Of a stretch of DNA of 32,000 nt, positions 1 through 18,110 are shown piece after piece (position 1 is the first letter of the stretch; each line of letters begins with the position of its first letter). Origin of the DNA: a virus; IMG/VR virus record IMGVR_UViG_3300042090_001664, positions 50,333-82,332 of that record. One strand, given 5' to 3'. The translations under genes and the position numbers were made by a program. The notes below the pieces were generated by a model. The model did no database searches, had not been told where the DNA came from, and worked only from the letters and a program-made list of their open reading frames with translations.

Positions 1-371
1 GCGATGTGGCGGGCCTCGACGACCCGCTCCGGGAGCTTCTCGAGGACGCGGTCGAGGTTGTCGAGCTCCGCGAGCGGGCCGTCGCCGTCGGTCGACGGGA
101 GTGCAGCGAAACGGGCCCAGACGCGGGTGAGGTTCGAGACAGCGAGGCCGAGCTGCTCCCATCGGCGGAGCGCTTCGGCGTTGTCGGCGTGGCTGCGGTA
201 GAAGGCGGCGAGCGCCTCCGGGACCGCCTCTTGGTAGAGGCGCAGCGCCTCGCGCATGATGTCGAGGCGCTGGTCGATGAGGCGCCAGTCGCAGGCGCTG
301 CACTCGCAGACGAGCGGCTGGTCGGTCCTGCGTTGCAGGCCGCAGGCGCGGCACTCGAAGACAGGGGTCAT
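1..371 (-). CDS. Hypothetical Cys-rich protein (3' end outside window)
   Basis: Open on the - strand from ATG at 371 (gaaggag RBS 6 nt upstream) to the window edge. Absent from the ORF track because no stop lies in the window. Translation MTPVFECRACGLQRRTDQPLVCECSACDW... has high GC3 and a zinc-ribbon-like Cys pattern. Confidence 0.6.
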   Translation of the reverse strand, partial: MTPVFECRACGLQRRTDQPLVCECSACDWRLIDQRLDIMREALRLYQEAVPEALAAFYRSHADNAEALRRWEQLGLAVSNLTRVWARFAALPSTDGDGPLAELDNLDRVLEKLPERVVEARHI

Positions 372-424
372 GGTGGCTCCTTCATGCTGGTAGTCTCGAA
401 TCATTAACATGCCTCCAACGCAGC

Positions 425-467
425 GACCCCCGCAGGCTACTCGAAAGCAGCCCCGGGGGTCGTGCGC
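425..467 (-). repeat. Hairpin-GCGCAC junction module, copy 1 of 14
   Basis: + strand gaccccc...gggggtc then gtgcgc. Lies between the stop at 479 and a ggagg. Confidence 0.8.
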
Positions 468-478
468 GCGGTCGTGGC

Positions 479-1207
479 TCAGAACGGGAGCGCGTCCGGG
501 TCGGCGGCTTCGGCCTCGGCGACATCGGTCTTGATGTCGCGCGGCGCGGGCGGCGGCGGAGCGGGCTGGTCCTCCATCGGCTGGTCGAGCGCGGCGGCGA
601 CCTGCTCCTCGGCGTACACCTTGGCGAGGAAGGTCCGCGCCATGGCCCGGTCGCCATTCGTGAGCTTCACGTAGCCCTCGAAGGTCTCGCGCACCTCGTC
701 GAGGAGGCGGTTGCGTTCGCGGCACGCCGCGTGGTCCTTCCAGATGTCCGCGGTCTCCTGCCGCACCTTGTCCATGTCCTTGTTGTACTTGGTGGTCGCG
801 GCGGTGTTCCGGTCGAGGATGTCCTTGCGGGTCTGGACGCTCGCCTTGATGGCGCCGAACTCCAGATCGGGGACGACGTCGATGAGCTTCTGCTCGTGCA
901 CCGCGACCGCGCGTGCGACGGAGAGCTCGGTCCGCCAGTCCTTGTCGATGAAGAGCGGCTTGAGGCGCAGGAAGGCCTCGAGATGCTCCTGCGTCTCGAA
1001 GCCGACCGTGCTGAACTTCTCGGTGCTCCAGACCTGGCGCTTCGGGACATCCCTCGGCTCGGGCGGTGGCATCTCGAGCACGGGCTTCTTCGGGAAGAGC
1101 ACGCCGCGCTCCATGAGCTCGACGTGCAGGTAGGCGTTCACCTGCTCCTCGGTCAGCGAGCCGCGCTGGCCCTCGGAGAGGTCGTAGTAGCGAGAGTATC
1201 GTTCCAT
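479..1207 (-). CDS. Hypothetical protein (242 aa)
   Basis: Track ORF with natural amino-acid composition and high GC3. An RBS precedes the ATG. Flanked by hairpin modules 1 and 2. Confidence 0.75.
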   Translation of the reverse strand: MERYSRYYDLSEGQRGSLTEEQVNAYLHVELMERGVLFPKKPVLEMPPPEPRDVPKRQVWSTEKFSTVGFETQEHLEAFLRLKPLFIDKDWRTELSVARAVAVHEQKLIDVVPDLEFGAIKASVQTRKDILDRNTAATTKYNKDMDKVRQETADIWKDHAACRERNRLLDEVRETFEGYVKLTNGDRAMARTFLAKVYAEEQVAAALDQPMEDQPAPPPPAPRDIKTDVAEAEAADPDALPF

Positions 1208-1231
1208 GGTGGTCGTCCCTTTCGACGCACG

Positions 1232-1268
1232 AACCCCGGCGGCTCAGAGGAGCCCCGGGGCGGTGCGC
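1232..1268 (-). repeat. Hairpin-GCGCAC junction module, copy 2
   Basis: + strand aaccccgg c ggctc-agag-gagcc ccgggg then cggtgcgc. Lies between the stop at 1291 and the RBS/ATG at 1207. Confidence 0.8.
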
Positions 1269-1290
1269 GTTGTCGTCCTGGCGAGCGAGT

Positions 1291-1851
1291 CTAACCCGGG
1301 TGGCGGTCCCAAGCGAGCAGCTCGGCGCCACGGAGGTCGAGGTAGTCTCGCTCGTCCTTCTCGGGACCGGCGGCGGTCATCACGTAGGCCCAGACGTGGC
1401 CAGGCTCGGGCTCGTACACGTTCCCGAGCGGCTCGCCTTCCGTGGCGCGCGCGAGGATGTGCTCGAAGCGCGCGCGGTCGTGGTAGCGGATCGCGCCACC
1501 GGCCCCGTGGATGCAGACCGGCCCGACGACGGAGCCGGCCTTCGTGCGCACGGTCACGTCCGCGTACGGGTCGGGCTTCGGTGGCCACGGCATGGGCCCG
1601 TGAACGTACTTGCGCGGCTCGCCCGAAGGCCCGAGCACGCCCGGCACGTCATCGACCGGAGGCTTCGTGTGGAAGCACTGGGCGCGCCGGTGCACGATGA
1701 AGCCGCCGACGGTGGCCGTTGTGGGCCGGCGGTTTGGGTCCGGATTGCAGTAGGTGCACGTGTGGTCCTTCGGATGGTCGTAGGCCCACTCGAGCGTGTA
1801 GTGACGGCGCCCTAGCCCGTCCGGGCCGGTGTCGTCGTACGTGACGAACAT
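1291..1851 (-). CDS. Hypothetical protein (186 aa)
   Basis: C-terminal part of track ORF 1291..2484. ATG at 1851 gives MFVTYDDTGPDG.... The upstream part of that ORF is Arg-rich out-of-frame read-through of the methyltransferase gene. Confidence 0.65.
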   Translation of the reverse strand: MFVTYDDTGPDGLGRRHYTLEWAYDHPKDHTCTYCNPDPNRRPTTATVGGFIVHRRAQCFHTKPPVDDVPGVLGPSGEPRKYVHGPMPWPPKPDPYADVTVRTKAGSVVGPVCIHGAGGAIRYHDRARFEHILARATEGEPLGNVYEPEPGHVWAYVMTAAGPEKDERDYLDLRGAELLAWDRHPG

Positions 1852-1856
1852 CGTGA

Positions 1857-2648
1857 TCACGTGCGCACCGTGACGAGGCAGGTCCGGACGCCGGTGCCGC
1901 TCTCCTCGAACGTGCCATCCGGTAGATCGACGACTCGAGACGTCGGGTACTCGGCGAGCTGCTCGCGGAGCTCGCACGAGGCGTGCGTCTGGCGGAACCT
2001 GAAGCCGGCCGAGACGACCGCGACGAGCCAGCCGCCGGGGCGCAGGAAGCGCAGCGCGTGGGCGACATGGAAGCAGTCGGCTTGCTGCGAAAATGGCGGA
2101 TTCATGAGCACGGCATCGAAGGCCCCGTGTGGCGCGAGCCCAAGGAAGTCGCGCTCGGGTAGCACGGAGAGGCCCGGCTGCCGCGCGAGGGTGGCAGCGC
2201 GCGCGGGGTCGCGCTCGCAGCACACGACGTGCGCGCCGGCGTCCCGCGCCGCCATGGCGATGCGGCCGAGCCCAGCGCTGGGCTCGAGGACGGCCTTGCC
2301 CGGTCCGACCCCGGCGAGCTCGCACATGCGCTTCGCGAGCGCCACCGGCGTCTCGAAGAAGTCGCCCGCGCGCGGGTTCGCAACGGAGCCAGTCAGGATC
2401 GCGGCCTCGATGCGCTCCGCAGCGTCCGTCCCTTCGGGGAAGACGTGCCCGCCGCCGGGGAGCGCCTTCGACGCCTTGGTCCACTTGCCGCCGAGCGCTT
2501 CGAGGATCTCGCTCAACGCCTGGTAGTCCTTGCGGTCGATCTGCTCGGTGTAGCGGAGCGCGACGTTACCCTTGCACGTGAAGCGCGAGAGGATATCGAG
2601 CACGCGGTCATCGACCTTGAGCTGGTCGCCCTTCGTTCGTCTGGCCAT
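1857..2648 (-). CDS. N6-adenine (amino) DNA methyltransferase
   Basis: Track ORF 1857..2693 trimmed to ATG 2648 (gaaagga RBS). SAM-binding motif I-like VLEPSAGLGRI is followed by catalytic motif IV NPPF. Confidence 0.85.
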   Translation of the reverse strand: MARRTKGDQLKVDDRVLDILSRFTCKGNVALRYTEQIDRKDYQALSEILEALGGKWTKASKALPGGGHVFPEGTDAAERIEAAILTGSVANPRAGDFFETPVALAKRMCELAGVGPGKAVLEPSAGLGRIAMAARDAGAHVVCCERDPARAATLARQPGLSVLPERDFLGLAPHGAFDAVLMNPPFSQQADCFHVAHALRFLRPGGWLVAVVSAGFRFRQTHASCELREQLAEYPTSRVVDLPDGTFEESGTGVRTCLVTVRT

Positions 2649-2800
2649 GGTGGTCCTTTCTGGTTGGAAGAGAATGGGAGCCGACCCGGGCAAGAACCCC
2701 CGGCCATATCGCTTGCGCCCCGAGCTTCACCGGGCCCCGCCTTTCGACGGCCGGTCACGCGGCCCGCGCCGCGCGGAGGCTCAGAGACTCCCGACGCCAC

Positions 2801-2837
2801 GACCTCGGCGAGGCTGGTGCCTCCCGAGGTCGTGCGC
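2801..2837 (-). repeat. Hairpin-GCGCAC junction module, copy 3 (variant stem GACCTCGG)
   Basis: gacctcgg...ccgaggtc then gtgcgc, immediately after the stop at 2839. Here ~150 nt of non-coding sequence separate it from the next gene. Confidence 0.7.
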
Positions 2838-2838
2838 G

Positions 2839-3282
2839 TCATGCGTTCTCGACGCCCCACCATGCGCCGTGCTCGTCGGAGCCGTGCGAGGTGACCTTGA
2901 CGTTGTACCGGCGGAAGAGGTCGTCCCAGTCGTCGAGCAGGAAGCCGAACGCGGACCATCCATTCTCGCGATGGCCGAGCAGCCATAGCTCGGAGCCGCG
3001 GAACCGAACGAAGCCCGGCGCGAGCAGGCGCGCGGGGCGCTTCGGCGGAACGCTGGAGCGAAGCGCCGCGATCTTGTCGTTCGCCTCGCGTAGCTGGCGC
3101 CGGAGTTCGGCGACGCGAGCAGCATGGCCCGCGAAGTCGCATGCCATCTCGAACGCGCGCTCGTTGTCCGCCTGGTCGTTCGGGGTGACGAGGATCTTGA
3201 GCTTGTCGGTGTTGAAGCCCGAGCTCCGCGCCCCGCGGGCGTCGCCGCAGTAGGTCGTGACGGCCTCGATGGTCTGGTCCAT
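2839..3282 (-). CDS. Hypothetical protein (147 aa)
   Basis: Track ORF with an aggagg RBS upstream of the ATG and natural composition. No domain recognised. Confidence 0.75.
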   Translation of the reverse strand: MDQTIEAVTTYCGDARGARSSGFNTDKLKILVTPNDQADNERAFEMACDFAGHAARVAELRRQLREANDKIAALRSSVPPKRPARLLAPGFVRFRGSELWLLGHRENGWSAFGFLLDDWDDLFRRYNVKVTSHGSDEHGAWWGVENA

Positions 3283-3301
3283 TGTGTCCTCCTGACGCAG
3301 C

Positions 3302-3335
3302 GACCCGGGCGACCTTGCGGCCCCCGGGCGTGCGC
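3302..3335 (-). repeat. Hairpin-GCGCAC junction module, copy 4
   Basis: gacccggg...cccggg c then gtgcgc. Stop at 3337 and aggagg RBS of 3282. Confidence 0.8.
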
Positions 3336-3336
3336 A

Positions 3337-3858
3337 TCATGCCGCAAGTGCGGCTTCGGCTTGCTCGAACAGATCGGCGAGGCCTTCATCGTACAGCGGC
3401 CCGACCTTGACCGGGAAGATGATGGCCACAAGCCCGTCGCCGGGCTTGACCTCGGTCTCGCGCGAACGCAGGTCGAGGCCGCCGCGGTGCTGGCCGCAGA
3501 CCCACCGGATGGCGAGCACCGGCCCCGCGTCGCGGAGGCTGAGCGAGGCCGTGACCTCCGGGAACTTCCGGGTCACGCGCGCGACCTCCGCGAGCTTCGC
3601 CCGAGGGATCACTACGTTGTGCCCCTCGACGCCGATCGCGATGTGCTTCTGCGCGCTGTCGGCGACGATTGGCCCGAACAGCGGCGCCACGTCGAAGCTG
3701 ACGCCGTTGTCCTCGCGCTTCGCGGTGGAGATGAGCTCCGCGACCGCGTCGCGGCACGCCTTCGCCCGCGCGGCCTGGTTCTCGCGCGCGGTCGCAGCCT
3801 GCGCGGTCTGCTTCGCCGCGCGGTCGGCAGCGAAGTCGTCGCTCCCGTCGGCGCTCAC
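3337..3858 (-). CDS. Hypothetical protein (173 aa)
   Basis: Last 173 codons of track ORF 3337..4221. GTG at 3858 overlaps the upstream TGA (GTGA). The remainder of the track ORF is Arg-rich and conflicts with the 3855..4061 gene. Confidence 0.55.
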   Translation of the reverse strand: MSADGSDDFAADRAAKQTAQAATARENQAARAKACRDAVAELISTAKREDNGVSFDVAPLFGPIVADSAQKHIAIGVEGHNVVIPRAKLAEVARVTRKFPEVTASLSLRDAGPVLAIRWVCGQHRGGLDLRSRETEVKPGDGLVAIIFPVKVGPLYDEGLADLFEQAEAALAA

Positions 3859-4061
3859 AGGCCACGCCGCAGCTTGCGCGCGACCCTCATGTAAAGCCGG
3901 CGCTGCTCGAGCGGCTCGTGACCCTTGCGCGCGGCGCGGGTGAGCGCCTCGGCGGTCTCGCCCGGGTCGAAGCCCTGCGTCGCGAACAGGCTGAGCACGA
4001 GCTTCTCGGTGAACGTCCAGTGGCGCTTCCGCGGCGCCCTCTCCTCGGTTGTGGTCGACAT
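3855..4061 (-). CDS. Small basic hypothetical protein (68 aa)
   Basis: Track ORF 3855..4079 trimmed to ATG 4061 (gggagg RBS). Begins MSTTTEERAPRKRHWTF.... Confidence 0.65.
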   Translation of the reverse strand: MSTTTEERAPRKRHWTFTEKLVLSLFATQGFDPGETAEALTRAARKGHEPLEQRRLYMRVARKLRRGL

Positions 4062-4075
4062 GGTGTGACCTCCCT

Positions 4076-4315
4076 TCAACGGCTCGACCCCGGCGGAGCA
4101 CGGAGGCTCCCCGGGGTCGTGCGCGGCGTGCAGTCGGCGACCGCCTCGGCGAGGGCCTCTTCCGCGGGCTTGAAGGCCGCCTCGGCGAATTCCTCGGCGA
4201 CTTCCGCCGCGACCAGATCATCGACGAACGATTCGGCCGTCTTGAAGCCTGGGGTTCGGGTGGGAATGAGGGAGCATACGAGCGTACGAAACCGGGCGTT
4301 CATGTCTTCGTTCAT
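4076..4315 (-). CDS. Small acidic hypothetical protein (79 aa)
   Basis: ATG at 4315 with a ggagg RBS; this is the tail of track ORF 4076..4804. The last ~15 codons read through hairpin module 5. The stop is the TGA inside the gttgaagg motif. Confidence 0.45.
   Translation of the reverse strand: MNEDMNARFRTLVCSLIPTRTPGFKTAESFVDDLVAAEVAEEFAEAAFKPAEEALAEAVADCTPRTTPGSLRAPPGSSR
4086..4124 (-). repeat. Hairpin-GCGCAC junction module, copy 5
   Basis: gaccccgg...ccggggtc then gtgcgc. Lies inside the 3' end of CDS 4076..4315. Confidence 0.8.
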
Positions 4316-4333
4316 GGGAGCCTCCAACGCCGC

Positions 4334-4369
4334 GACCCCGCCGGCTCCGAAGAGCCGCGGGGTGGGCGC
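4334..4369 (-). repeat. Hairpin-GCGCAC junction module, copy 6 (variant GCGCCC)
   Basis: gaccccgc c ggctc-cgaa-gagcc gcggggt then gggcgc. Stop at 4372, ggagg, ATG 4315. Confidence 0.7.
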
Positions 4370-4371
4370 GT

Positions 4372-4467
4372 TCAGCGGTAGACCGACGGGGAGAAGTAGA
4401 GCAGCGCCGCGAGGGCGGCGCCGACGACGAGCGCCGCGACGTACAGGAAGACGCCGCGCCGGGTCAC
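4372..4467 (-). CDS. Possible 31-aa single-pass membrane peptide
   Basis: GTG at 4467 overlaps the upstream TGA (GTGA). Sequence TRRGVFLYVAALVVGAALAALLYFSPSVYR is one hydrophobic helix. It is the tail of track ORF 4372..4623. Confidence 0.35.
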   Translation of the reverse strand: MTRRGVFLYVAALVVGAALAALLYFSPSVYR

Positions 4468-4832
4468 GTGGCAGCTCGTTCGGCGGTGCGGCTGCCGTAG
4501 CAGGCGTCCGCGCCGTGCTCCTCGAAGAGCTCGACCACCCGAGCGGCGACCGCTTCTTCCGCGGTGCGCTTGCTCGCGAACGGCTTGCCGCCGCCGACTG
4601 CGGCGGCGCGAACCTGCGTGCATCCGGCGCGGCCGACGTAGACGAACCAGGCGCGCAGCGTGGTGCCGGAGTCGATCGGCTCCCGGCGCACGTCGTAATG
4701 CCCCGCGAGGATGTGCAGGTCTTCGAGGCTAAGCCCGTCGGGCGGCGGCTCGGTGTCGTCGGGTGGGTCGCCCTGGTCCGTGGTGTCCGTGGTGAGCCAG
4801 GCATCGAAGCCGGCCGGGAGCTCGCCGGTCAC
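4464..4832 (-). CDS. Hypothetical protein (122 aa)
   Basis: Track ORF. The GTG start overlaps the upstream TGA (GTGA). Acidic/Pro-rich N-terminus and high GC3. Confidence 0.7.
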   Translation of the reverse strand: MTGELPAGFDAWLTTDTTDQGDPPDDTEPPPDGLSLEDLHILAGHYDVRREPIDSGTTLRAWFVYVGRAGCTQVRAAAVGGGKPFASKRTAEEAVAARVVELFEEHGADACYGSRTAERAAT

Positions 4833-5065
4833 GACGTCACCGTGAATGTGGCGAGGAAAGCTCGCATGTTGGCGATCGCCTCGTCGTAATCGCGCTGTTT
4901 GTAGAGCATCTGCGATAGAGCGCGCGCCGCCTCAGCTTCCGTGAGCTCGAGCGGCGGCCCACCAGTTTGCTTCTCGAATCCGATCAGTTCGTACAGGCCA
5001 GGGAAGTCGCCTGGTTTGAACTTCGGGTAGAGCGTGTTGAGCGGGAAAGCCTTCTTCTGTTGCAT
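4829..5065 (-). CDS. Hypothetical protein (78 aa)
   Basis: Track ORF with an aggagg RBS upstream of the ATG and natural composition. Confidence 0.75.
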   Translation of the reverse strand: MQQKKAFPLNTLYPKFKPGDFPGLYELIGFEKQTGGPPLELTEAEAARALSQMLYKQRDYDEAIANMRAFLATFTVTS

Positions 5066-5084
5066 GATGTCCTCCTAGCGCAGA

Positions 5085-5117
5085 ACCCCCGCAGCCTTGC
5101 GGCCCGGGGGTGTGCGC
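5085..5117 (-). repeat. Hairpin-GCGCAC junction module, copy 7
   Basis: aaccccc...gggggt then gtgcgc. Stop at 5119 and aggagg RBS of 5065. Confidence 0.8.
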
Positions 5118-5118
5118 T

Positions 5119-5349
5119 TCACGTGATCTCGATGCGCCCGTCCAGCAAGGCGTTCTCGATGCCCTGGACCTGGTCGGCCCCGCAGTCCTCGCACGGGTAG
5201 CCCTCCGCGTCGGGCTCGGTGTCCCGCACCGGGATGGCGCCGCACGCGAGGCACACGCCATCGTAGCTCTCGCAGTGCTCGTTGTACTCGGCTTCCGTCA
5301 TCGTGGCGACGACGCGGGATGGCTTGGTGACGGTAGCTGTCGTGGTCAT
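5119..5349 (-). CDS. Small zinc-ribbon-like protein (76 aa)
   Basis: Track ORF with two CxxC pairs (CLAC ... CEDC). ATGA overlap with the upstream gene. Confidence 0.7.
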   Translation of the reverse strand: MTTTATVTKPSRVVATMTEAEYNEHCESYDGVCLACGAIPVRDTEPDAEGYPCEDCGADQVQGIENALLDGRIEIT

Positions 5350-5552
5350 CGTGAAACCCTCCTGCGCCGTGGCGCTTCGATGATGTGGTCGCCGCGCTGG
5401 ATCGTCCAGGCAACTTCCTCGGCGAGCTCCGGGTGCTTCGGGCTGAGGAGCTCACGCAGCGACGCGAGCGAGACCGTGTCGACGTCGGCGCGGTCCCAGC
5501 CGAGCGCGTCGGCGCACCGCCGCTTCAGCTGCTCGAGGTCCGGGCCGCTCAC
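5346..5552 (-). CDS. Hypothetical protein (68 aa)
   Basis: Track ORF. The GTG start overlaps the upstream TGA, and its own stop overlaps the next ATG. Confidence 0.65.
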   Translation of the reverse strand: MSGPDLEQLKRRCADALGWDRADVDTVSLASLRELLSPKHPELAEEVAWTIQRGDHIIEAPRRRRVSR

Positions 5553-5908
5553 CGGCGCCCCTTGGCGCGCAGCGCGACGAAGAAGACGCAGCCGAGCACG
5601 AGCACCTCACAGAGCGCGTGCCCGAGGCTGTGCCGGAAGCCGACGACGTGCGCGACGCGGCCGATGAGCCACGAGCACCCGATCGCGAAGGCGAGCGCGG
5701 TCACGGCGAGCTCGCTCGGGAAGCGGCGGAGCGGGTGCGCGATGCGGTACGCGCGCGCGTGCTCGTCGCAGAGCGCGCGGTCCGTCATCCCCCGCATGCG
5801 CGGGTCGGGGATCAGGGTCGTCCATCGGCGCTCGCAGCCGCTCTCGTGGTCGCATGTGTCGTCGTCGGTCTCGGGTTGCGCGAGGCGCGCATCATGGTCG
5901 TTTCGCAT
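5549..5908 (-). CDS. Hypothetical membrane protein (119 aa)
   Basis: Track ORF 5549..5974 trimmed to ATG 5908 (aggagg RBS). Two hydrophobic segments lie in the C-terminal half. Confidence 0.6.
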   Translation of the reverse strand: MRNDHDARLAQPETDDDTCDHESGCERRWTTLIPDPRMRGMTDRALCDEHARAYRIAHPLRRFPSELAVTALAFAIGCSWLIGRVAHVVGFRHSLGHALCEVLVLGCVFFVALRAKGRR

Positions 5909-5928
5909 GGGTTCCTCCTGACGCCGAA

Positions 5929-5964
5929 GCCCGGACAGGCTTGGAAGCCTTCCGGGTCGGCGCT
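5929..5964 (-). repeat. Hairpin junction module, copy 8 (diverged: AGCGCC)
   Basis: gcccgga c aggct-tgga-agcct tccgggt then cggcgct. Stop at 5967 and aggagg RBS of 5908. Confidence 0.6.
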
Positions 5965-5966
5965 GG

Positions 5967-6419
5967 TCACGCACACTCGACGGGAGCGGCGAGGCTTGCC
6001 GGCAGCTTGCCGGCGAATTGCTGATCGACGATGTTGCGCATCCACGTGGTCGTGAAGCTCACGAGGTCGTACTGGATCCGCCGGTTCTCCCTCGTCGGCT
6101 TGCCCTTCTCGTCGAACACGATGGCGACCTGGTAGAGGCCGACCGCGTGCTGTTCGTACGTGACAGGGTACCACTCGCCGGTCTCGGGGCGCCGCCAGTA
6201 GGTGATCTCCGGGTCGCTCATGAGGTCGCCGTTCTGCTCGTAGCGGTGCGCGACCGCGATCATCCCGGGCCCGATGTACTCGACCCCGAGCGCCATGATG
6301 CCGGCGCCGCCGTTGTCGATCTTGCGGTGGTGGCGCGCGTCCTCGTCGCCGAAGTCGTCCGAGAGTCCGGACACGAGAACGTCGAGCACGCGCTGCGCAG
6401 TCTTGGAAACGGGTTTCAT
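5967..6419 (-). CDS. Hypothetical protein (150 aa)
   Basis: Track ORF with an aggagg RBS and globular-looking composition (…AVAHRYEQNGDLMSDPEITYW…). Family not confidently recognised. Confidence 0.8.
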   Translation of the reverse strand: MKPVSKTAQRVLDVLVSGLSDDFGDEDARHHRKIDNGGAGIMALGVEYIGPGMIAVAHRYEQNGDLMSDPEITYWRRPETGEWYPVTYEQHAVGLYQVAIVFDEKGKPTRENRRIQYDLVSFTTTWMRNIVDQQFAGKLPASLAAPVECA

Positions 6420-6441
6420 CGTAGGAACCTCCTAACGGCTC

Positions 6442-6475
6442 GACCCCCGCACCGTTGCCGGTCGGGGGCGTGCGC
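6442..6475 (-). repeat. Hairpin-GCGCAC junction module, copy 9
   Basis: gaccccc...gggggc then gtgcgc. Stop at 6479 and aggagg RBS of 6419. Confidence 0.8.
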
Positions 6476-6478
6476 ATC

Positions 6479-6949
6479 CTACTTGAGCAGGCCGAGATCC
6501 CGGAAGCTCGCGAAGCGCCCGGTCGAGCCGAGCACCACGTGGTCGAGCAGCTGGATCCCGAGCAGCTTGCCCGCGTCGGCGACCTTCGCGGTCATGTGCC
6601 GATCCTCCGGGCTTGGCGTCTCGTCGCCGCTCGGGTGGTTGTGGGCGAGAATGATCGCGGTGCACCCGGTCACGATCGGCGTGCGGAAGATCGTGGCGAT
6701 GTCCGTCGAGCAGGACCCGAGCGCGCCGCGCGCGACCTCGGTCATGCACACGACCATGTTCGCGTTGTTCATGCCGACCACGTACATGACCTCAACGACC
6801 TCTTGCACGATGCGCGGGCCGAGTAGCATCGCGATGTCGATCGATGTGGCGATCGGCTTCGCGGCGGCCGCGCGCTCGCTGGTCATCGCAGGCTCACGCA
6901 GGTAGACCGTCCACCCGGGCTCGAGGCAGTCGCTGTAACGTTGTCGCAT
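6479..6949 (-). CDS. radC: RadC-like JAB/MPN domain protein
   Basis: Track ORF 6479..7051 trimmed to ATG 6949. Carries the JAMM motif ILAHNHPSGDETPSPEDRHMT (HxHPSG..S..D) characteristic of the RadC family. Confidence 0.9.
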   Translation of the reverse strand: MRQRYSDCLEPGWTVYLREPAMTSERAAAAKPIATSIDIAMLLGPRIVQEVVEVMYVVGMNNANMVVCMTEVARGALGSCSTDIATIFRTPIVTGCTAIILAHNHPSGDETPSPEDRHMTAKVADAGKLLGIQLLDHVVLGSTGRFASFRDLGLLK

Positions 6950-6967
6950 GGCATCCTCCGACGCGAC

Positions 6968-7002
6968 GACCCCGGCGGGCCGAAGCCCCCGGGGTCGTGC
7001 GC
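6968..7002 (-). repeat. Hairpin-GCGCAC junction module, copy 10
   Basis: gaccccgg...ccggggtc then gtgcgc. Stop at 7011 and ggagg RBS of 6949. Confidence 0.8.
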
Positions 7003-7010
7003 TGTTTGCT

Positions 7011-7721
7011 TCACGCGGCGGCGGTCGCCGGCGCGGCGGGGAACCACGCATCCAGCCAGTAGCCGGCGCACTCCTCCGTTCCGCTCGCGGCGTAGTCGGC
7101 GAGCCCCTTGACCGCGTCCGCCTGTTCGACCGCGATGTAATCGCCGACTTTCGTGCTGTTCTGCTTCAGCGTGAACACGTGGATTACTTCCACGCCGTCG
7201 GCGGCGAGCTCCGCGCCGAGCTGCTTCGCCCGGTCGGGCTCCTCGGCGAGCAGCTTGCTGAAGCCGAGCACGAGCACGCGCCCGGGCGCGCACGCGTGCA
7301 CGTCGGCGCGGCCGACCTTGCCGCTGGTCCCGAGGTTGCGATACCCGGTGACCTTGCTGGCGATCGTCGCCGGCGACCACATCCCGCGCGACGGCTGCAT
7401 GATGCGGCAGTCGAGCACGTGCGCGACGTCGAGCGCCGCGCACATGCGGCCGAGATGTTCGGGATTCGGCAACGATCGTTGCCCGATGGTGAACACGAGC
7501 CGCGACGGCGTCGTGGCGCGGGTCGCGCTCGGGGGCGGCGCGGGCGTCGGCGCAGGGGCCGGCGGAGGCGTGGCGGCCGCTTGCGGCGCCGGAGCGGGCG
7601 ATGGTGCGGCCTTCGGCGCGCGCGGCGCCTTCGGTGCGGGAGCGCTCGCGGGCGCCTGGGGCGCGCCCGTTGCGGCGAGCAGTGCCGCGCGTGTTGCGTT
7701 TCTGTCGTGCTTCTTGGACAT
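7011..7721 (-). CDS. Hypothetical protein with Pro/Ala-rich linker; C-terminal domain weakly DUF488-like
   Basis: Track ORF trimmed to ATG 7721. The N-terminal ~80 aa are a PAPAP-type low-complexity linker. The C-terminal LVFTIGQRSL...LDVAHVLDCR resembles the DUF488 TIGHS...DVR pattern; this is a weak call from memory. Confidence 0.65.
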   Translation of the reverse strand: MSKKHDRNATRAALLAATGAPQAPASAPAPKAPRAPKAAPSPAPAPQAAATPPPAPAPTPAPPPSATRATTPSRLVFTIGQRSLPNPEHLGRMCAALDVAHVLDCRIMQPSRGMWSPATIASKVTGYRNLGTSGKVGRADVHACAPGRVLVLGFSKLLAEEPDRAKQLGAELAADGVEVIHVFTLKQNSTKVGDYIAVEQADAVKGLADYAASGTEECAGYWLDAWFPAAPATAAA

Positions 7722-7745
7722 GTGGACCCTACCTTTCAACGCGTC

Positions 7746-7781
7746 GACCCCGGCGACCCTTGCGGGCCCCGGGGGATGCGC
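7746..7781 (-). repeat. Hairpin junction module, copy 11 (variant GCGCAT)
   Basis: gaccccgg...ccggggg then atgcgc. Lies between the stop at 7806 and the RBS of 7721. Confidence 0.7.
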
Positions 7782-7805
7782 GTTGTCGGTCGGGCGAGGC
7801 GAGGC

Positions 7806-8408
7806 CTACGCCGTCAGCATGAGGCACTCGACCGCGGCGGGGAGCTCCGCCATCGCCGAGCTCATGTCCTGGAACGTGCCGCCCCCGGCCTCAGCGAGCC
7901 GCCGGAGCGCCGCGACGGCGCGGAGGTCGCGCGGGTTGCCAACGAAGATGCAGTCGAGCACGCCGGGAAGGCTGGCGACCGCGTCGAGACAGTCGTCGAT
8001 CTGGTCGACCTCGCCGTCGCAGATAAGGACGGTGCGCGCCGGGCGCGTCGTGGCCGCGTGACGGATGGCCTTGTGGGCCTGGGTCCACCCGCAGTTCCAT
8101 CCGGCGGTGACACCGGGCTCCGGCAAGCGCTGGCCCTTCAGGACCTCGCGCGTCTCTTCGGCGAAGGCGACCACGCGGGCGAGTCCGCGCAGCGGGTTGA
8201 GCGCCTCGCGCAGGACTTCGAGCCGGCTCTTGCCGTTGATGCCCGACGGGTCCTGCATCGATCCCGAGCAGTCGGCGAGTACGACGACGCCTTCACCGGC
8301 GGTAGCGAGGCGCGCAAGCGTCTCGGCGGTCGTGGTCGCGAGCGCGCCGCTTGCGGCGCTGAACATGTCGGAAAGGTCGGCGGGGACGTGGACGGTGTTG
8401 GTAGTCAT
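7806..8408 (-). CDS. von Willebrand factor A (vWA) domain protein
   Basis: Track ORF trimmed to ATG 8408. Has a beta-strand plus MIDAS-like motif VVVLADCSGSM (DxSxS) and overall vWA-like length and pattern. Confidence 0.8.
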   Translation of the reverse strand: MTTNTVHVPADLSDMFSAASGALATTTAETLARLATAGEGVVVLADCSGSMQDPSGINGKSRLEVLREALNPLRGLARVVAFAEETREVLKGQRLPEPGVTAGWNCGWTQAHKAIRHAATTRPARTVLICDGEVDQIDDCLDAVASLPGVLDCIFVGNPRDLRAVAALRRLAEAGGGTFQDMSSAMAELPAAVECLMLTA

Positions 8409-8435
8409 GGCGGTCTGTTGCTCCTTCAACGCGGC

Positions 8436-8471
8436 GACCCCCGCACGGGGTTACCGTCGGGGGTCGTGCGC
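8436..8471 (-). repeat. Hairpin-GCGCAC junction module, copy 12
   Basis: gaccccc...gggggtc then gtgcgc. Stop at 8473 and gaaggag RBS of 8408. Confidence 0.8.
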
Positions 8472-8472
8472 A

Positions 8473-9288
8473 TCATGCCGCGCGAGCGGCGGCGGAATAG
8501 AGGCGCGCGAGGAACTGCGCCGCGCCGTTCGCGTTTTTGAACGCGACGGGGTCGCCTCCCTGGTCGGGGTGCTTGACCGCGCCCGACCCGATGAGCTTGC
8601 GGAGCGCCTTGCGTACGCCATCTTCCGTGCGCTCGCCCGGGCTCATGCCGAGCACGGACCGCGCGAGGCGTTCGGCCTGGAGCGGGTCAAGCGGCGCAGC
8701 CTTCGGGGGCGGCGGCGGCGCTTGCGGGCGCGGCGGCGGGGTCGCCGCTTGCGGCTGCGGTGCGGGCGACGGTGCGGGTGCGGCCGCTCCGGAGCGCATC
8801 ACGTCGACCGTGGCGCCCGCGTAGTGCGTCGCGACCGCGCGGAGCACGGCATGCTCCTCCGCGATGGGGAAATCCCAAACCGCCGGCGCGGCCTTCGTCG
8901 CGCGGTGGAAACGGTGCCCGATGATCGTGTGGTACGCGGCGACCGCGCCCGGGTTGTACGGGCCGCAGACACCGATCCGGCCGTGCGCGTCGTCGCAGAA
9001 TACGTCTACCTCCGTCGAGGCGTCGTACGTGGTCGGCGCGGCCGCTTGCGCGGGCGGCGCGGCGCGGCGCGTGCGGCGAGGCGCGCTCGCAGGCTTCGAG
9101 CCCGAAAACTCGCACAGAGTGATCCGCGCGCCCGTCGCCTTGTCGGCACCGGACCACAGAACGGCGGTGACCTGCTCGGCCGAGCGGTCGCCCTTGGCGG
9201 TGACCGCGGTCACGAGGTCGCCGGGCGAGGCGTCGCCCTCGACGCGCAGGCACCAAACTCCGCGGTAGCGTGAAAACGTGGCTTGCAT
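8473..9288 (-). CDS. J-domain (DnaJ-like) containing protein
   Basis: Real start is ATG 9288 (gggag RBS) within track ORF 8473..9498. A Pro-rich linker leads to a C-terminal J-domain-like segment, SVLGMSPGERTEDGVRKALRKLIGSGAVKHPDQGGD, with the HPD tripeptide. Confidence 0.75.
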   Translation of the reverse strand: MQATFSRYRGVWCLRVEGDASPGDLVTAVTAKGDRSAEQVTAVLWSGADKATGARITLCEFSGSKPASAPRRTRRAAPPAQAAAPTTYDASTEVDVFCDDAHGRIGVCGPYNPGAVAAYHTIIGHRFHRATKAAPAVWDFPIAEEHAVLRAVATHYAGATVDVMRSGAAAPAPSPAPQPQAATPPPRPQAPPPPPKAAPLDPLQAERLARSVLGMSPGERTEDGVRKALRKLIGSGAVKHPDQGGDPVAFKNANGAAQFLARLYSAAARAA

Positions 9289-9309
9289 GGTAGCTCCCTT
9301 CAACGGCGC

Positions 9310-9345
9310 GACCCCCGCGAGGCGAGGGCCTCCGGGGGTGTGCGC
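9310..9345 (-). repeat. Hairpin-GCGCAC junction module, copy 13
   Basis: gaccccc...gggggt then gtgcgc. The stop at 9345 overlaps the motif. gaagggag RBS of 9288. Confidence 0.8.
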
Positions 9346-9554
9346 TAGATGCGTGGAAAGCGGCGTGGCGCCGTGCGGGGCGTGCACTCCGCGGCGCGAA
9401 GGTCCGCGGCGAGCGCGGCGTCGCGCTGCGCGCACGCCTCCGGGCTCATGTCGAGCCGCGCGCGCCGCGGAAAGAGCTCCTCGAGCGGGCGGGACCATGC
9501 GGGCGTGTTGGGTCGGTTCGGGCGAGCTCCGCCCGCGTCAGGGTGCGCCCTCAC
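9345..9554 (-). CDS. Possible small hypothetical protein (69 aa)
   Basis: GTG at 9554 overlaps the upstream TGA (GTGA); tail of track ORF 9345..9818. GC3 is only moderately high. An alternative internal ATG (MSPEACAQRD...) is possible. Confidence 0.35.
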   Translation of the reverse strand: MRAHPDAGGARPNRPNTPAWSRPLEELFPRRARLDMSPEACAQRDAALAADLRAAECTPRTAPRRFPRI

Positions 9555-9712
9555 GCGCGCACCGTCTTGGCGGCCGCGCCGCGTCCCTTGACGATCGCCG
9601 GGCCGCTGTGGATCTGCTTCGCGGCGCGCTTCGGGCCGCGGTAATCGATCGGGGTGGAGCCTCGCGCGTAGCGGGCCGCGTCGGTCTTGTAGCTCGTCCG
9701 GATGTCTTGCAT
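9551..9712 (-). CDS. Small basic protein (53 aa), first gene of the leftward operon
   Basis: ATG at 9712 with an aggagg RBS. Sequence MQDIRTSYKTDAARYARGSTPIDYRGPKRAAKQIHSGPAIVKGRGAAAKTVRA has very high GC3. Too short to appear in the ORF track. Confidence 0.5.
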   Translation of the reverse strand: MQDIRTSYKTDAARYARGSTPIDYRGPKRAAKQIHSGPAIVKGRGAAAKTVRA

Positions 9713-9737
9713 GGCGTCTAGCCTCCTGAAAAGCGAA

Positions 9738-9772
9738 GCCCCCGCGGTCCGAAGGACCCGGGGGCGTTGCGC
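9738..9772 (-). repeat. Hairpin junction module, copy 14 (variant GCGCAA), in the 5' leader of the first operon gene
   Basis: gcccccg c ggtcc-gaa-ggacc cgggggc then gttgcgc. On the - strand it is followed by ttcgcttttc aggagg ... ATG 9712. No gene lies upstream. Confidence 0.7.
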
Positions 9773-10222
9773 TGGTGTTGCCGGGGTGGTGCCTCGCGCG
9801 CCGTTGTCGTGGCGACATGCGAGGGGCCGGCGGAGCCGTTTTTAGCGGCCGTCGCTCCCTTGCGAAGGGAGCATCCTAGGGGGTAGCGTATGAGCCGGGC
9901 CTAGGGTTGGACTCTCATCGGTTGGGCCGTCCCTTCCGAAGCCGAGGGGAGCGCCCCCCGTCAAGCCTCATGGGTCCGAATCGCGCTTTCGCGCGTCGAC
10001 GGGATCAACTGCTCCCGTTCGGACGATGTTAGAGATCGTGTGTCGAAGCACCGTAACTCCCGGCCTAGTGGCTCGCGACTGACCGCCCGGCCGAACCGGG
10101 TTGCGCGTTGGGAACTGTGTGCGTTGCGCGTCAAGCGCGCGGCCTCGTGCTCGCGGTGCGCGGGGGCACCTGGTCGCCGACGGGGTGAGCCGTAAGCGTT
10201 GCCGATCGCCGGTTCGACGTGC

Positions 10223-10249
10223 CTTATCCGGCCCTGAGCCGTTGCGCGT
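10223..10249 (+). repeat. 27-nt perfect direct repeat, copy 1 (cttatccggccctgagccgttgcgcgt)
   Basis: Identical to 10364-10390; copies start 141 nt apart. Ends in the recurring GTTGCGCGT motif. Confidence 0.9.
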
Positions 10250-10363
10250 CGTAGCTCTCCCTCGCTCCCGGTTACCCCGCGCTTCCCTTCACCGGGCCCG
10301 CGGCTCTCCGTTCGCTCCCGCATTTCGCTCCGTCTTACTGACCCTCCCCGCTTGACCCCGCGA

Positions 10364-10390
10364 CTTATCCGGCCCTGAGCCGTTGCGCGT
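10364..10390 (+). repeat. 27-nt perfect direct repeat, copy 2
   Basis: Identical to 10223-10249. Confidence 0.9.
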
Positions 10391-11196
10391 GAAGGTCGGG
10401 CGCCTTGCGGCGTCCTTCGGTATCGGGCTTTCGACGTTGCCCCGTAAGGGCGGCAAGCGTGCGTTTCGGGACTCACTACCTAGGAACCTGAGCGGTCCTC
10501 GCAGTCAGTCTATGTGCTCCCCTGTCAGCGGTCGGGGCCGTCCGTCCGGCGTTGCGTTGCCCGGCGACTAACCCCTAGAGCAGGCGCCGTGCCTAACCTC
10601 TGCTGACCTGTATTCGGGTACTTAGGACCGTTCCCGGACGTGTGGATTGCATCCGTGGAATCCGGCCGTTTCGGTTGTGCAAGGCGTCCCGTGAAACACC
10701 CGACCCCGAAAACGTCGCGAATCTAGCGTTGTCTCGCTGCGTCAGCGGCAATCGACGGCGCGTCATCCGAATTTGTGGGCCTTATGTTTCCCGTCGGTTT
10801 TCACTTCTGAACGACGGATCGGGCTCCGGAGGCTCGAAAGTGTTTCACGGGGTGCCCCGCTGGCATCCCCCCGGACGGGTGCCCCGCGGGGCCCCCTCGC
10901 CCCGTAGCGGCGCCCGGGCGCACTCTGGCGCCTTCCGGCCGTTCCCCTGGCGCGAAGGCCTTCCGCGCGCCCCGGGGCGCGCGCCTTGTCAGATCCTGGC
11001 GTCCGGGCGCGTCGTTCCCCCGATGGCACCGGGGCGAGCGTTCACGCGGAGCGCTCGCGCGACCGCGCGCGCTGTCGCCCCTGACGCGCGGCGAGCTCGG
11101 CTCGAGCTCCTCGAGCGCTCGACGCCACCCGTCTCCTCGCGGTAGGCTGCGCTCGGACGACGAGCACGCGCCGCGGGCGCGGGAGGGACGACACCG

Positions 11197-11889
11197 ATGC
11201 CGACGTACGAGCTCCAGAAGGACGACCCGAGCCACACAGGGGAAGCGCTGCGGCTCCGCGACGAGCGGAGCCACGACGTGGCGCACATCCTCGGCGAGAC
11301 CGACCCGGTCGTGGTGAAGACGCTCGGCTGGCTGCTCCAGCAGCTCGGGGCGGCGGAGGTCTCGATCCTGGTCGCCGAGGCGCTGGAGCTCGAGGCCGCG
11401 GGCGGGGTATGGGTGGTCGCCACGCAGGCGCGGCGCTCGCTCGGTGGCGTGTTCTTCGCGCTGGTGAAGATGCGGGCGACGCGCGCGTTCAACGCGGCGC
11501 TGTTCCGGCGCCAGCAGCGGGAGGTGGCCCGCGGCTCGGAGAAGGCTCTCGCAGCGGGTGAAGCGGCGCTAGGCGACGCGGTCTCGGCGCTGACGCCCAA
11601 GGGCGAGGAGAACGCATGGCAGCTCGCGAACGCGGCGAAGTTCTGCGCCGCGCGGGCGAAGGCGACCGACGCCTGGAAGGCCAGGGGCACCGGCGGCGGA
11701 CCGTGGGAGCCGAGGAGCATCCAGTGTCCGACCTGCGGGGCGCGCGTTGGGGAGCCGTGCTCGGCGACGGTCACGCTGCACACGCGCCTCGACCCGAGGT
11801 GCCAGCCGCGCGGGAAGGCGCCGCCTCCACCGAGACCGCCGCCCGCGCCGGAGCCCGAGGTGCTCGTGCGGCGCCGGAGGCCCTCGTGA
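11197..11889 (+). CDS. PHAX-like RNA-binding (RNA_GG_bind) domain protein with C-terminal zinc ribbon
   Basis: Track ORF with a gggagggacgacacc RBS. The segment VAHILGETDPVVVKTLGWLLQQLGAAEVSILVAEALELEAAGGVWVVATQARRSLGGVFFALVK aligns by eye to the PHAX RNA-binding domain (...NGGLFIMNGSRRRTPGGVFLNLLK). The C-terminus has CPTCGARVGEPC. Confidence 0.7.
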   Translation: MPTYELQKDDPSHTGEALRLRDERSHDVAHILGETDPVVVKTLGWLLQQLGAAEVSILVAEALELEAAGGVWVVATQARRSLGGVFFALVKMRATRAFNAALFRRQQREVARGSEKALAAGEAALGDAVSALTPKGEENAWQLANAAKFCAARAKATDAWKARGTGGGPWEPRSIQCPTCGARVGEPCSATVTLHTRLDPRCQPRGKAPPPPRPPPAPEPEVLVRRRRPS

Positions 11890-16840: not shown

Positions 16841-17202
16841 AGCCGACGACCCCGCTCGACCGCGTCGTCGCGAGCCTGCGCTCGAGGCGGTTCACGCGCT
16901 TCCGCGACGAGGCAGAGCTCCAGCGCCTCATGGCTGGCGTGTTCGCCGAGGACGGCATCGCCGCGCTTCGCGAGCACGCCCTCAGCGCCAAGGACCGCCC
17001 CGACTTCTACTTTGAGGGCGTGGCGGTCGAGGTGAAGATCGGGGGGTCGACGACCTCTCTGGCGCGTCAACTTTTCAGGTACGCGGAGGTCGAATCCGTC
17101 ACCGCGTTGGTGCTAGTCTCCACGCGGGCGAGGCACACGACGATGCCGACAACGATGGTCGGCAAGCCGGTCGTGAATGTGCACGTCGGAGGGTTCGTGT
17201 GA
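16837..17202 (+). CDS. Hypothetical protein, possible PD-(D/E)xK nuclease fold
   Basis: ATG at 16837 (ATGA overlap). [15 protein letters not shown] is consistent with a D...ExK motif. Functional call is weak. Confidence 0.55.
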
Positions 17203-18110
17203 GGTTCACCTGGACGATCTACGCGCTGGCGGAGCCGCTGCCGCTCGCGACCGCGGGCGATGTGCGGTACGTAGGCTTCACCACGAAGACGCCGGAGCAT
17301 CGGCTTCGTGAGCACCGCTACAACGCAACATCCGACGCGGTCGGCTACAAGCAGCTACACGCGCGAAGGAACCGCTGGCAGCGCAAGCTCTACCAGATGG
17401 GAGTGGCGCCCGCGCAGACCGTCCTTGAGTCCGGCACGTGGGAAGGCGATGACCCGGACGAGTTTCGCGCGGTGTGGGCGCCAGCCGAGCGGCGCTGGGT
17501 CGCGCACTACCGCGCGCTCGGGGCCGACCTCACGAACATGACCGACGGCGGAGACGGGACGCCAGGACGGCACCACACGGAAGAGGCGAAGGCGAAGATC
17601 GCCGCGAACACGCGCGCGGCGCAGCTCGGCCGGAAGCACACGCCCGAGACGCGTGCGAAGATGAGCGAATCGGCGCGGCGAAGGCAAGCAGCGCCAGAGG
17701 TCCGCGCTGCGATGAGCGAGAGCCTGCGAAAGCGCGTTTTCACTGCTGAAGCCGTTGAGAGGATGCGGGAGAACGGGCGCAGGAGCGGGCATTCGCCAGA
17801 GGCGCTCGAAAAGCGAGCGGCGCAGATCCGCGGCCGAAAGGCGACGGCCGAGACGCGGGCGAAGCTTTGCGCCGCGGCGCAAATGCGTATCGCTCGGCCA
17901 GGGGCGTTGGACATGCAGCGAGCCAGCCTGCGCGCGGGCAAGCACGTCAAGCTCAACGCCGAAAAGGTTCGCGAGATCCGCGCAGCGGTCGCCGGTGGCG
18001 AGTCCCAATCGTCCGTGGCTGTCCGGTATGGGCTCCACAGTGCTTCGGTCTGCAACATCGTCAAGCGCAAGACGTGGCGTGACGTCCAGGACGAGGTCGT
18101 GGTGGCATGA
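17199..18110 (+). CDS. GIY-YIG homing endonuclease with NUMOD3 repeats and C-terminal HTH
   Basis: Track ORF. Has the IYAL...VRYVGFT...RLREH GIY-YIG module. Repeated [12 protein letters not shown] / [13 protein letters not shown] are NUMOD3-type motifs. C-terminal [25 protein letters not shown] is HTH-like. Confidence 0.85.

Follow-up and report, generated by a model that had tools for sequence, protein, structure and literature searches.

Layout of the locus and its junction modules

The region considered here is a window of 32,000 nucleotides (nt; the whole stretch of DNA that was analyzed), positions 50,333 to 82,332 of the IMG/VR virus record IMGVR_UViG_3300042090_001664, in which a compact module, essentially a GC-rich hairpin lodged between a stop codon and the Shine-Dalgarno sequence (SD) of the next gene, recurs along one operon. 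The window has a GC content of about 70%, and its sequence matches a 46,125-bp metagenome contig (ENA ERZ27249839, k141_911359) as well as a Logan contig from SRR6182195; the contig sequence to the left of window position 1 is referred to as L052. Genes were called using the GC content at third codon positions (GC3, 0.86-0.98 in genes) together with open reading frame (ORF) checks, and agree with the gene calls of the public contig. They form two divergent operons: the leftward operon (1..9712, minus strand) continues past the left edge and contains about 21 mostly small genes, with products including J-domain-like, VWA-like, RadC, DUF6908 and methyltransferase proteins, while the rightward operon supplies replication functions, i.e. 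a DnaB-type helicase, an SNF2-type helicase and an HNH/NUMOD3 endonuclease. They are separated by a non-coding region of 1.4 kb (9781..11196), in which no ORF has the coding GC3 signature and which presumably holds the promoters of both. The leftward operon shows a characteristic architecture: its genes are arrayed in groups of one to three, coupled within groups by GTGA or ATGA overlaps, and the modules lie between the groups.

A covariance model built from the 14 copies in the window, and run without filters on both strands of its 32 kb, recovers exactly these copies, all on the minus strand between 402 and 9780, with scores of 49-69 bits; the next-best match, at 16.9 bits, is the reverse complement of a copy. 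The number of copies and their placement at gene junctions thus stand as given in a preliminary description of this DNA. A rigid composite pattern has 8 matches where 0.02 are expected, and a pattern for the hairpin alone has 10 where 1.37 are expected, all on the minus strand within 427-9764; the hexamer GCGCAC by itself is not enriched (81 matches, 70 expected). The further claim that almost every junction carries a module has to be narrowed: modules are indeed placed at junctions, but at 12 of the 20 in-window junctions of the operon (11 intergenic copies, and one, m05, inside a coding sequence just before the next start), seven others being GTGA/ATGA overlaps and the last a 14-nt gap following the translated copy m05. 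Immediately beyond the left edge there is a 15th copy (L052 11321-11380, 38.8 bits), and a degenerate module at L052 16823-16901 has kept the flanks ACGACAAGCACGCGCAC and GATGCGCTGGAGG and lost the main hairpin; this remnant has a 5' extension, GGACGACAA(G)C, in common with m02 and the 15th copy. No intact copy was found in the 9 kb beyond the 15th, a region that includes N6_N4 methylase, DpdA and AAA_24 genes. Every copy is in gene orientation and confined to one operon region; the rightward operon, as had been described, is free of modules, and most of its junctions are 4-nt stop/start overlaps.

Beyond this contig, a pattern scan of IMG/VR followed by the covariance model reduced 45 pattern matches to two contigs that are true multi-copy carriers: IMGVR_UViG_3300035695_000001 (162.8 kb), with 25 copies in the loci designated L008 and L030, and IMGVR_UViG_3300010396_000002 (155.6 kb), with at least 16 copies in the loci L032, L058 and L061. 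In both, all copies lie on the coding strand, between a stop codon and an SD-ATG. Read 5' to 3', the module consists of a stop codon, a GCGC box (with A as the usual next base), a conserved C-rich arm, a variable upper stem with its loop, the return arm with an unpaired G at the exact point where the upper stem joins the middle one, then two unpaired bases, and a 3' box, (G/C)CGU, that pairs with GCGC; 1-4 nt later comes an extended SD (GAAGGAG-like), and after 5-9 nt the start codon. The GCGC and (G/C)CGU boxes thus constitute a lower stem, above which lie a small internal loop and a conserved middle stem. The hairpin had been correctly described before, except that the invariant bulged G and the pairing of GCGC with the 3' box had been missed; of the box variants, GCGCAT, GCGCAA and GCGCCC are all present, with GCGCCG in addition.

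All 14 window copies fold alike, at about -25 to -40 kcal/mol (z -2.3 to -7.0), into helices totaling about 17-22 bp, 4-7 of them in the lower stem, that are interrupted by a 1x2 internal loop and a bulge of one base. The lower two thirds of the hairpin are constrained in sequence, and the top varies freely yet stays paired. Of the 55 copies from all three genomes, 53 (and 47 of the 48 that were aligned) have a single G as the bulge, 47 have an upper stem of 4-5 bp, and there are 37 distinct loop sequences. Tetraloops occur in 38 copies, among them 8 UUCG loops, 7 with a closing C-G pair, and 9 GNRA loops, or 17 in total. GCGC is invariant in all 48 aligned copies, whereas the 3' box is less conserved (73, 94, 73 and 81% at its successive positions); the base that follows its conserved C-G-U is T in 62%. 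The lower helix is 82% paired and shows no covariation because its 5' side never varies, and its terminal pair is G-U in 39 of the 48 copies, though C would pair better. An independent scan for hairpins, run on the related loci, brought up no separate class at the junctions that is devoid of GCGC, which argues that the invariance is not merely an artifact of the model. The stop codon ends between -1 and +4 nt from GCGC in 29 of the 39 copies in which this could be scored, and the SD lies just outside the helix, unpaired in most minimum-free-energy folds. At least five copies retain an intact hairpin with no adjacent SD and ATG (m03, L008 3497, L008 7120, L030 1844 and L032 5844), which places the function with the transcript or the unit upstream and not with downstream initiation. 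The L008 7120 copy precedes an inserted gene, a GIY-YIG homing endonuclease (L008 7188-7859) with a TTG start and no SD, positioned directly after the module.

From right to left, the first copy, m14 (9710..9780; covariance model score 52.4 bits; fold -29.1 kcal/mol, z -3.5), is the leader copy, with a GCGCAA box, a UUC loop and a U-rich tail, followed by the SD and ATG of the first gene. A copy in this position upholds the earlier argument that the module is not simply a terminator of the preceding gene. It is also, as had been seen, the only copy followed by a U-tract, and the sole terminator-like one; the combination of GC-rich hairpin and U-tract that defines an intrinsic (Rho-independent) terminator is found in this copy alone, and that assignment was rejected for the module. 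In m13 (9286..9353; 63.4 bits; -31 kcal/mol) a TAG stop overlaps the GCGC box, and m12 (8406..8479; 60.7 bits) lies between the J-domain-like and VWA-like genes, a junction whose ortholog in L008 carries a module too. They are followed by m11 (7719..7789; 56.3 bits), with a GCGCAT box and a GCAA loop; m10 (6947..7010; 67.6 bits; -36.8 kcal/mol, z -5.2), with a C(UUCG)G loop, upstream of the RadC-like gene; m09 (6417..6483; 56.9 bits), with a GCAA loop, upstream of the DUF6908 gene; m08 (5906..5971; 54 bits; fold z -5.0), with the GCGCCG variant; m07 (5063..5125; 49.4 bits), with a GCAA loop and the lower stem AGCGCA/UGCGCU; and m06 (4313..4377; 63 bits), with the GCGCCC variant and a C(UUCG)G loop. 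The ORF check bears out the earlier statement that m05 (4059..4132; 69.4 bits) is translated, as the C-terminus of ORF 4076-4315, with the TGA stop inside its GTTGAAGG. Beyond m04 (3280..3343; 59.7 bits; GCAA loop) comes m03 (2780..2845; 65.2 bits; -36 kcal/mol, z -7.0), an orphan in which the intact hairpin is followed by a 190-nt structured spacer and no start codon directly follows; thus the order of stop, box, hairpin, SD and start set out in the preliminary description applies to most copies but not to this one. The gap at m03 (2646-2841, minus strand) folds at -112 kcal/mol overall, the spacer contains a second 3'-box-like sequence, CCGTCGAAAGG, with no hairpin, and the methyltransferase gene beyond it has a ribosome-binding site of its own. 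Finally, m02 (1205..1276; 62.8 bits) stands 22 nt past the stop codon and has the 5' extension GGACGACAAC, and m01 (402..475; 58.4 bits; -40.3 kcal/mol), which has a UUCG loop and, at 8 bp, the longest of the upper stems, comes before the gene cut by the left edge of the window.

A folded sense strand, almost certainly RNA, and its distribution

Each of the 13 main-helix pairs has changed on both of its sides, in agreement with the compensatory hairpin previously proposed for the transcribed strand. In the alignment 91.7% of the cells are paired, as against 40-53% once the 3' partners have been shifted by 1-3 columns, and double-sided changes affect 139 cells as against 40 in shuffles; both comparisons lean somewhat toward the structure, the alignment having been fitted to the covariance model. 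G-U pairs outnumber A-C pairs by 22 to 1 in the ten core pairs and by 36 to 5 overall; as the opposite strand would have mismatches at these positions, the sense strand is the one that folds. UUCG loops, in particular C(UUCG)G, are specially stable in RNA and not in DNA, and their enrichment accordingly indicates RNA rather than single-stranded DNA. Together, the covariation of all 13 pairs, the excess of G-U over A-C and the presence of RNA-stable loop types establish that the module is almost certainly a single-stranded structure of the sense strand, namely an RNA.

The conservation of the module can be followed across considerable protein divergence. The J-domain-like and VWA-like genes and the gene after them (8473-9288, 7806-8408 and 7011-7721, minus strand) are syntenic with L008 2617-4940 at 25-36% identity; the J-domain-like protein has a KHPDQGGD motif, the third protein is unknown, and this three-gene block is the only protein content clearly in common with the 163-kb IMG/VR contig. 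The methyltransferase of the window shows 44% identity to its counterpart in L061. Modules are present at the corresponding orthologous junctions of both L008 and L061 despite protein identities of 25-44%; the lower, sequence-constrained platform has thus been retained while the proteins diverged to near the detection limit. Between lineages the upper stems have been replaced by compensatory change, and the base of the middle stem is lineage-specific, being CGAC/GUCG in the window and often AGAG/CUCU in L032.

Two closer relatives, with DnaB proteins 55% and 42% identical to that of the window, have the same divergent layout and no module. In one of them a single junction (L063 4896-4987, minus strand) has a GCCGCGTTGAGGGG that resembles the 3' box plus SD, beside an unrelated hairpin (16 bits by the model), and may be a trace of a lost module. 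The strict module pattern gave no more than three single weak matches, each in an actinobacterium, among 185,579 species-representative genomes, and four matches, on short contigs, in the JGI metagenomes. Thus, the genome-wide scatter of a REP/MITE-like repeat (repetitive extragenic palindrome or miniature inverted-repeat transposable element), which the preliminary description had named as the outcome that would speak against it, was not found in the window or in these genomes, a test that is incomplete without the genome of the real host. A megablast search with the 10.5-kb array region yielded no match among GenBank phages; a search with the SNF2-type helicase yielded matches of at most 44% identity, including one to an acidobacterial jumbo phage, and no IMG/VR relative; and one with the RadC gene recovered two IMG/VR loci, neither with a module. 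In Rfam searches of the window only tRNAs reach the gathering score, and with the threshold relaxed to E<=1 no match within 1-11200 coincides with a module; the literature searched contains no description of it either. The module is a real and strongly supported family of structured RNAs, which matches no Rfam family and which we have not found described, with a recognition platform that is as yet unexplained.

Proposed punctuation of the leftward mRNA and competing explanations

The interpretation that we favor, with a probability of about 0.45, is that the module is a cis-acting structured RNA of the leftward polycistronic, and presumably early, mRNA, which would punctuate its translational units and define and protect mRNA 3' ends. 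The hairpin might do so as a barrier to 3' exonucleases or by means of an endonucleolytic cut at its base; the operon mRNA would in this way be turned into stable hairpin-capped segments, each with the next ribosome-binding site just downstream, as with the early RNase III sites of T7. This role is favored by the persistence of intact hairpins that no ribosome-binding site or gene follows, and by the leader copy, which matches the layout of the T7 early mRNA, where the R0.3 site lies in the leader. Since the sequence invariants are explained neither by RNase III nor by stability alone, a specific trans-acting factor is implied as the reader of the platform, which could be a double-strand-specific nuclease or another host or phage protein.

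By analogy, the likely mechanism would be closest to that of the T7 early RNase III sites, and the position to that of the start-associated sequences (SAS) and their extended form (ESAS) of Cluster K mycobacteriophages. The T7 sites (R0.3, R0.5, R1, R1.1 and R1.3) are, like the module, irregular hairpins of about 50-60 nt with an internal loop and no U-tract; they are found in sense orientation in the leader of an early polycistronic transcript and at the boundaries between its cistrons. The modules are distributed in a comparable manner, with one in the leader, 11 intergenic, m05 in a coding sequence and m01 at the left edge, and of the roles suggested in the preliminary description a T7-like processing or stabilizing site appears to fit best, judging from the leader copy, the size of the hairpin and its irregular helix. 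The module differs in having three times as many copies, a shorter lower stem, a direct fusion to the next SD and the strict invariants GCGC, bulged G and CGU; compared with a two-turn irregular double-stranded RNA with an internal loop, its helix has 17-22 bp and its lower stem just 4-7.

In the Cluster K phages, SAS and ESAS recur as motifs that incorporate the SD and lie within a few nt of start codons, the SAS being a 13-bp motif, GGGATAGGAGCCC, and about half of them are preceded by imperfect 17-bp inverted repeats with a variable spacer of 4-13 bp (PMC3203893). The resemblance lies in their restriction to non-structural genes, a nearly uniform orientation and a lineage-dependent consensus; likewise, the module is confined to a single strand of a single operon, whose genes are small and non-structural. 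The sequences are unrelated, the 3' side here being (G/C)CGU and a GAAGGAG-like SD instead of GGGATAGGAGCCC, and the module is additionally tied to the upstream stop codon. A hairpin in ESAS mRNA has little support according to its authors (PMC3203893), whereas pairing in the module is strongly supported by the covariation of every main-helix pair. The function of SAS and ESAS was still unknown in 2025 (PMC12699233).

Other systems offer partial parallels. The module has the UUCG loops and very stable GC-rich stems of T4 intercistronic C(UUCG)G hairpins, which, like the REPs within E. coli operons, are GC-rich and stable and are thought to shield upstream mRNA from 3' exonucleases; unlike the module, the T4 hairpins have no common flanking boxes, and E. 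coli REPs are spread throughout the host genome in both orientations, frequently as pairs, go together with a REP-associated tyrosine transposase (RAYT) and have the tetranucleotide GTAG where the module has GCGC. In chloroplast intercistronic expression elements a short RNA signal sets both the upstream transcript's 3' end and the downstream transcript's 5' end, as is proposed for the module; there a bound protein of the PPR10 (pentatricopeptide repeat) type, rather than a hairpin, is the barrier, making the analogy a functional one only. The mycobacterial RNase E motif RN|CNU (PMC10641625) fits the conserved CGU loosely, and with a host that is probably not an actinobacterium it serves as a lead only. 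A lambda-type nut site, which consists of boxA and boxB, has a conserved hairpin loop that an N protein reads and occurs once per early operon, was ruled out by the 37 loop sequences among 55 copies and the 15 copies in a single operon.

Several points weigh against the punctuation reading. RNA ends at the modules are a prediction. We know of no requirement of RNase III for an invariant sequence such as GCGC plus a bulged G, so these would be left unexplained by that enzyme, and with a lower stem of only 4-7 bp the helix is borderline for it. No nuclease or hairpin-binding protein was identified among the approximately 60 proteins of the element that were scanned: Pfam and PHROGs searches recovered no integrase, transposase, RNase III or known RNA-binding regulator among them, in a set that covers all but about 4.6 kb of the 46-kb contig, and the one lead was a PHAX_RNA-bd domain in the protein of 11197-11889. 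The two module-less relatives with the same divergent layout indicate that the module is dispensable for this kind of operon. Lastly, strand asymmetry by itself does not discriminate against a role in single-stranded DNA, because transcription and leftward replication from the divergent region would run the same way.

An extended version of the punctuation reading, which we put forward more tentatively and regard as somewhat unlikely as a whole, concerns the nature of the reader. Here the platform, i.e. the GCGC/CGU stem with its terminal G-U, the internal loop and the bulged G, would be the recognition code of a dedicated RNA-cleaving or RNA-binding protein, common to a small group of related high-GC phages, perhaps ones that infect polyangial myxobacteria, where operon-wide RNA punctuation would coordinate early, probably anti-defense genes. 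Its logic would be comparable to that of CRISPR repeats with Cas6 and of chloroplast PPR barriers. The candidate readers are a matter of speculation: the small basic products of 9551-9712 and 9345-9554, and a 230-aa protein encoded by the first rightward gene (11197-11889, plus strand) with a PHAX_RNA-bd domain (36.3 bits against a Pfam cut-off of 25). The latter also has a weak match to a phage zinc finger and a weak sequence match in the PDB (E 0.12), and no relative of it was found in IMG/VR; it is possibly an RNA-binding protein encoded beside the hairpin array.

Of the alternatives to punctuation, the one that survives best, though it appears unlikely, is that the module is an operator for a sequence-specific RNA-binding regulator. 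Such a protein would bind the platform beside each SD and thereby switch the translation of the whole gene set together, like T4 RegA or the coat proteins at RNA-phage operators. This would account for the invariance of the platform beneath a variable top, for the fixed distance from the bulged G to a 3' box that lies within a few nt of the SD, for the confinement of the module to one gene class and for a stem base that differs by lineage (CGAC/GUCG as against AGAG/CUCU), and the three candidate readers named above could as well be its binders. It is weakened by the five or more copies that keep the hairpin with no adjacent SD and ATG and by the failure to find a homolog of these candidates in the other module-bearing loci.

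Less probable again is a function in transcription, with the modules as attenuators or pause hairpins that act when the ribosome lags, giving graded polarity; the leader copy would then be a true attenuator, and an antitermination factor might be involved. GC-rich hairpins with UUCG or GNRA loops are indeed found in intrinsic terminators, the leader copy has a U-tract and was flagged as terminator-like, and the stop codon abuts the hairpin, a setting reminiscent of an E. coli system in which, as described there, a terminator a few bp after the stop codon is silenced by the translating ribosome (PMC4824070). However, 13 of the 14 window copies have no U-tract, terminator-like sites in the region number 3, fewer than the 5.7 of its shuffles, a series of fifteen terminators would leave little transcription for the distal genes, and termination does not call for an invariant GCGC or bulged G.

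We consider it improbable that the module acts as single-stranded DNA, be it as an element of the REP/RAYT or IS200/IS605 type, as an attC-type recombination site or as a signal for lagging-strand priming, with the modules bounding exchangeable cassettes. Its anatomy has elements of both REPs (a conserved tetranucleotide with an imperfect palindrome) and integron attC sites (a same-orientation array of gene units ending in imperfect hairpins, with conserved and paired outer boxes, an extrahelical base and a variable top); the units of one to three genes bounded by modules differ in content between the window and L008 outside the common block, and G-T pairs are tolerated in single-stranded DNA as well. 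On the other side, the scanned proteins include no integrase, HUH or Y1 transposase, the module is neither dispersed nor ever found in inverted pairs, the strict pattern is nearly absent from the species-representative genomes (the three weak matches above), the UUCG enrichment points to RNA, and the module is tightly fused to the SD of the next gene. Both specific assignments were rejected: for REP or REPIN (paired REP) elements with a RAYT, the tetranucleotide and imperfect palindrome are present and dispersal, occurrence in both orientations and a Y1/HUH transposase were not found; for attC, the RYYYAAC/GTTRRRY cores are absent, the 5' box being GCGC and the 3' box conserving only CGU, and no member of the IntI/integrase family occurs among the ~60 proteins.

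No better founded is a role as a translational insulator, as put forward in the preliminary description, or as a standby structure, in which the hairpin would keep the ribosome-binding site single-stranded in an mRNA of 70% GC or would stack on the SD/anti-SD helix. While the SD does lie unpaired just outside the helix in most folds, and the 3' box merges into the extended SD (GAAGGAG), the calculated opening energy from SD to AUG is practically the same with the native as with a shuffled hairpin (means of 7.42 and 7.54 kcal/mol, with no consistent direction across 13 copies), the orphan copies have no ribosome-binding site to insulate, and the sequence invariance is left unexplained. A double-stranded DNA repressor site, like the mycobacteriophage stoperators that had also been proposed or the conserved inverted repeats of phiC31, would explain the many same-orientation copies in one operon and the inverted-repeat arms, but is contradicted and very improbable, as the arm-to-arm spacing varies from about 12 to 24 nt instead of being fixed, one arm always has an extra G, compensatory changes preserve pairing and not sequence, the loops are of RNA type, and the G-U excess together with the variable spacing rules out a symmetric double-stranded site.

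If the punctuation reading is true, the module represents a structured RNA family of about 55 copies, with full covariation support, that governs first-gene expression in uncultured high-GC phages. The family poses a question open to direct test, namely which factor reads GCGC and the bulged G, and, as SAS and ESAS have lacked a known function since 2011, a module with proven pairing in the same position provides a useful contrast. With stop codon, hairpin and ribosome-binding site in a compact 60 nt, the module could also find use as a part for building operons in high-GC hosts.

Other features of the element

The closest cellular relatives of the DnaB-type helicase are those of Sorangium, Chondromyces and Polyangium (35-37% identity), on which basis a polyangial myxobacterial host is possible, if weakly indicated. 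Downstream of the array, L052 14448-16823 has genes for an N6_N4 DNA methylase and DpdA in the same operon. The DpdA family is associated with 7-deazaguanine modification of DNA, and the two genes suggest that the leftward operon as a whole serves anti-restriction.

The divergent region (9781-11196) contains four exact copies of ACGCGCAAC on the minus strand between 10100 and 10390, out of only five exact copies in the whole window, and a 32-nt direct repeat (10218-10249 and 10359-10390) with a purine-rich stretch in between. A sigma-70-like promoter was sought in 9781-11196 and none was found; the region could serve as an origin or as an operator region, or encode a non-coding RNA. Two short ORFs of the leftward operon, at 9345-9554 and 4372-4467 (both minus strand), are uncalled in the gene table of the public contig even though a GTGA start that overlaps or a coding GC3 signature marks them; their products are an arginine-rich protein of 69 aa and a hydrophobic peptide of 31 aa. 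On the rightward side, the gene for the HNH/NUMOD3 homing endonuclease lies at 17199-18110. A tRNA cluster is located at 26737-27025 (plus strand), for which the tools give discordant calls: ARAGORN predicts tRNA-Ala(CGC) at 26737-26814 and tRNA-Cys(GCA) at 26950-27025, and Rfam matches 26950-27024 along with an unusually long tRNA of 107 nt at 26839-26945.

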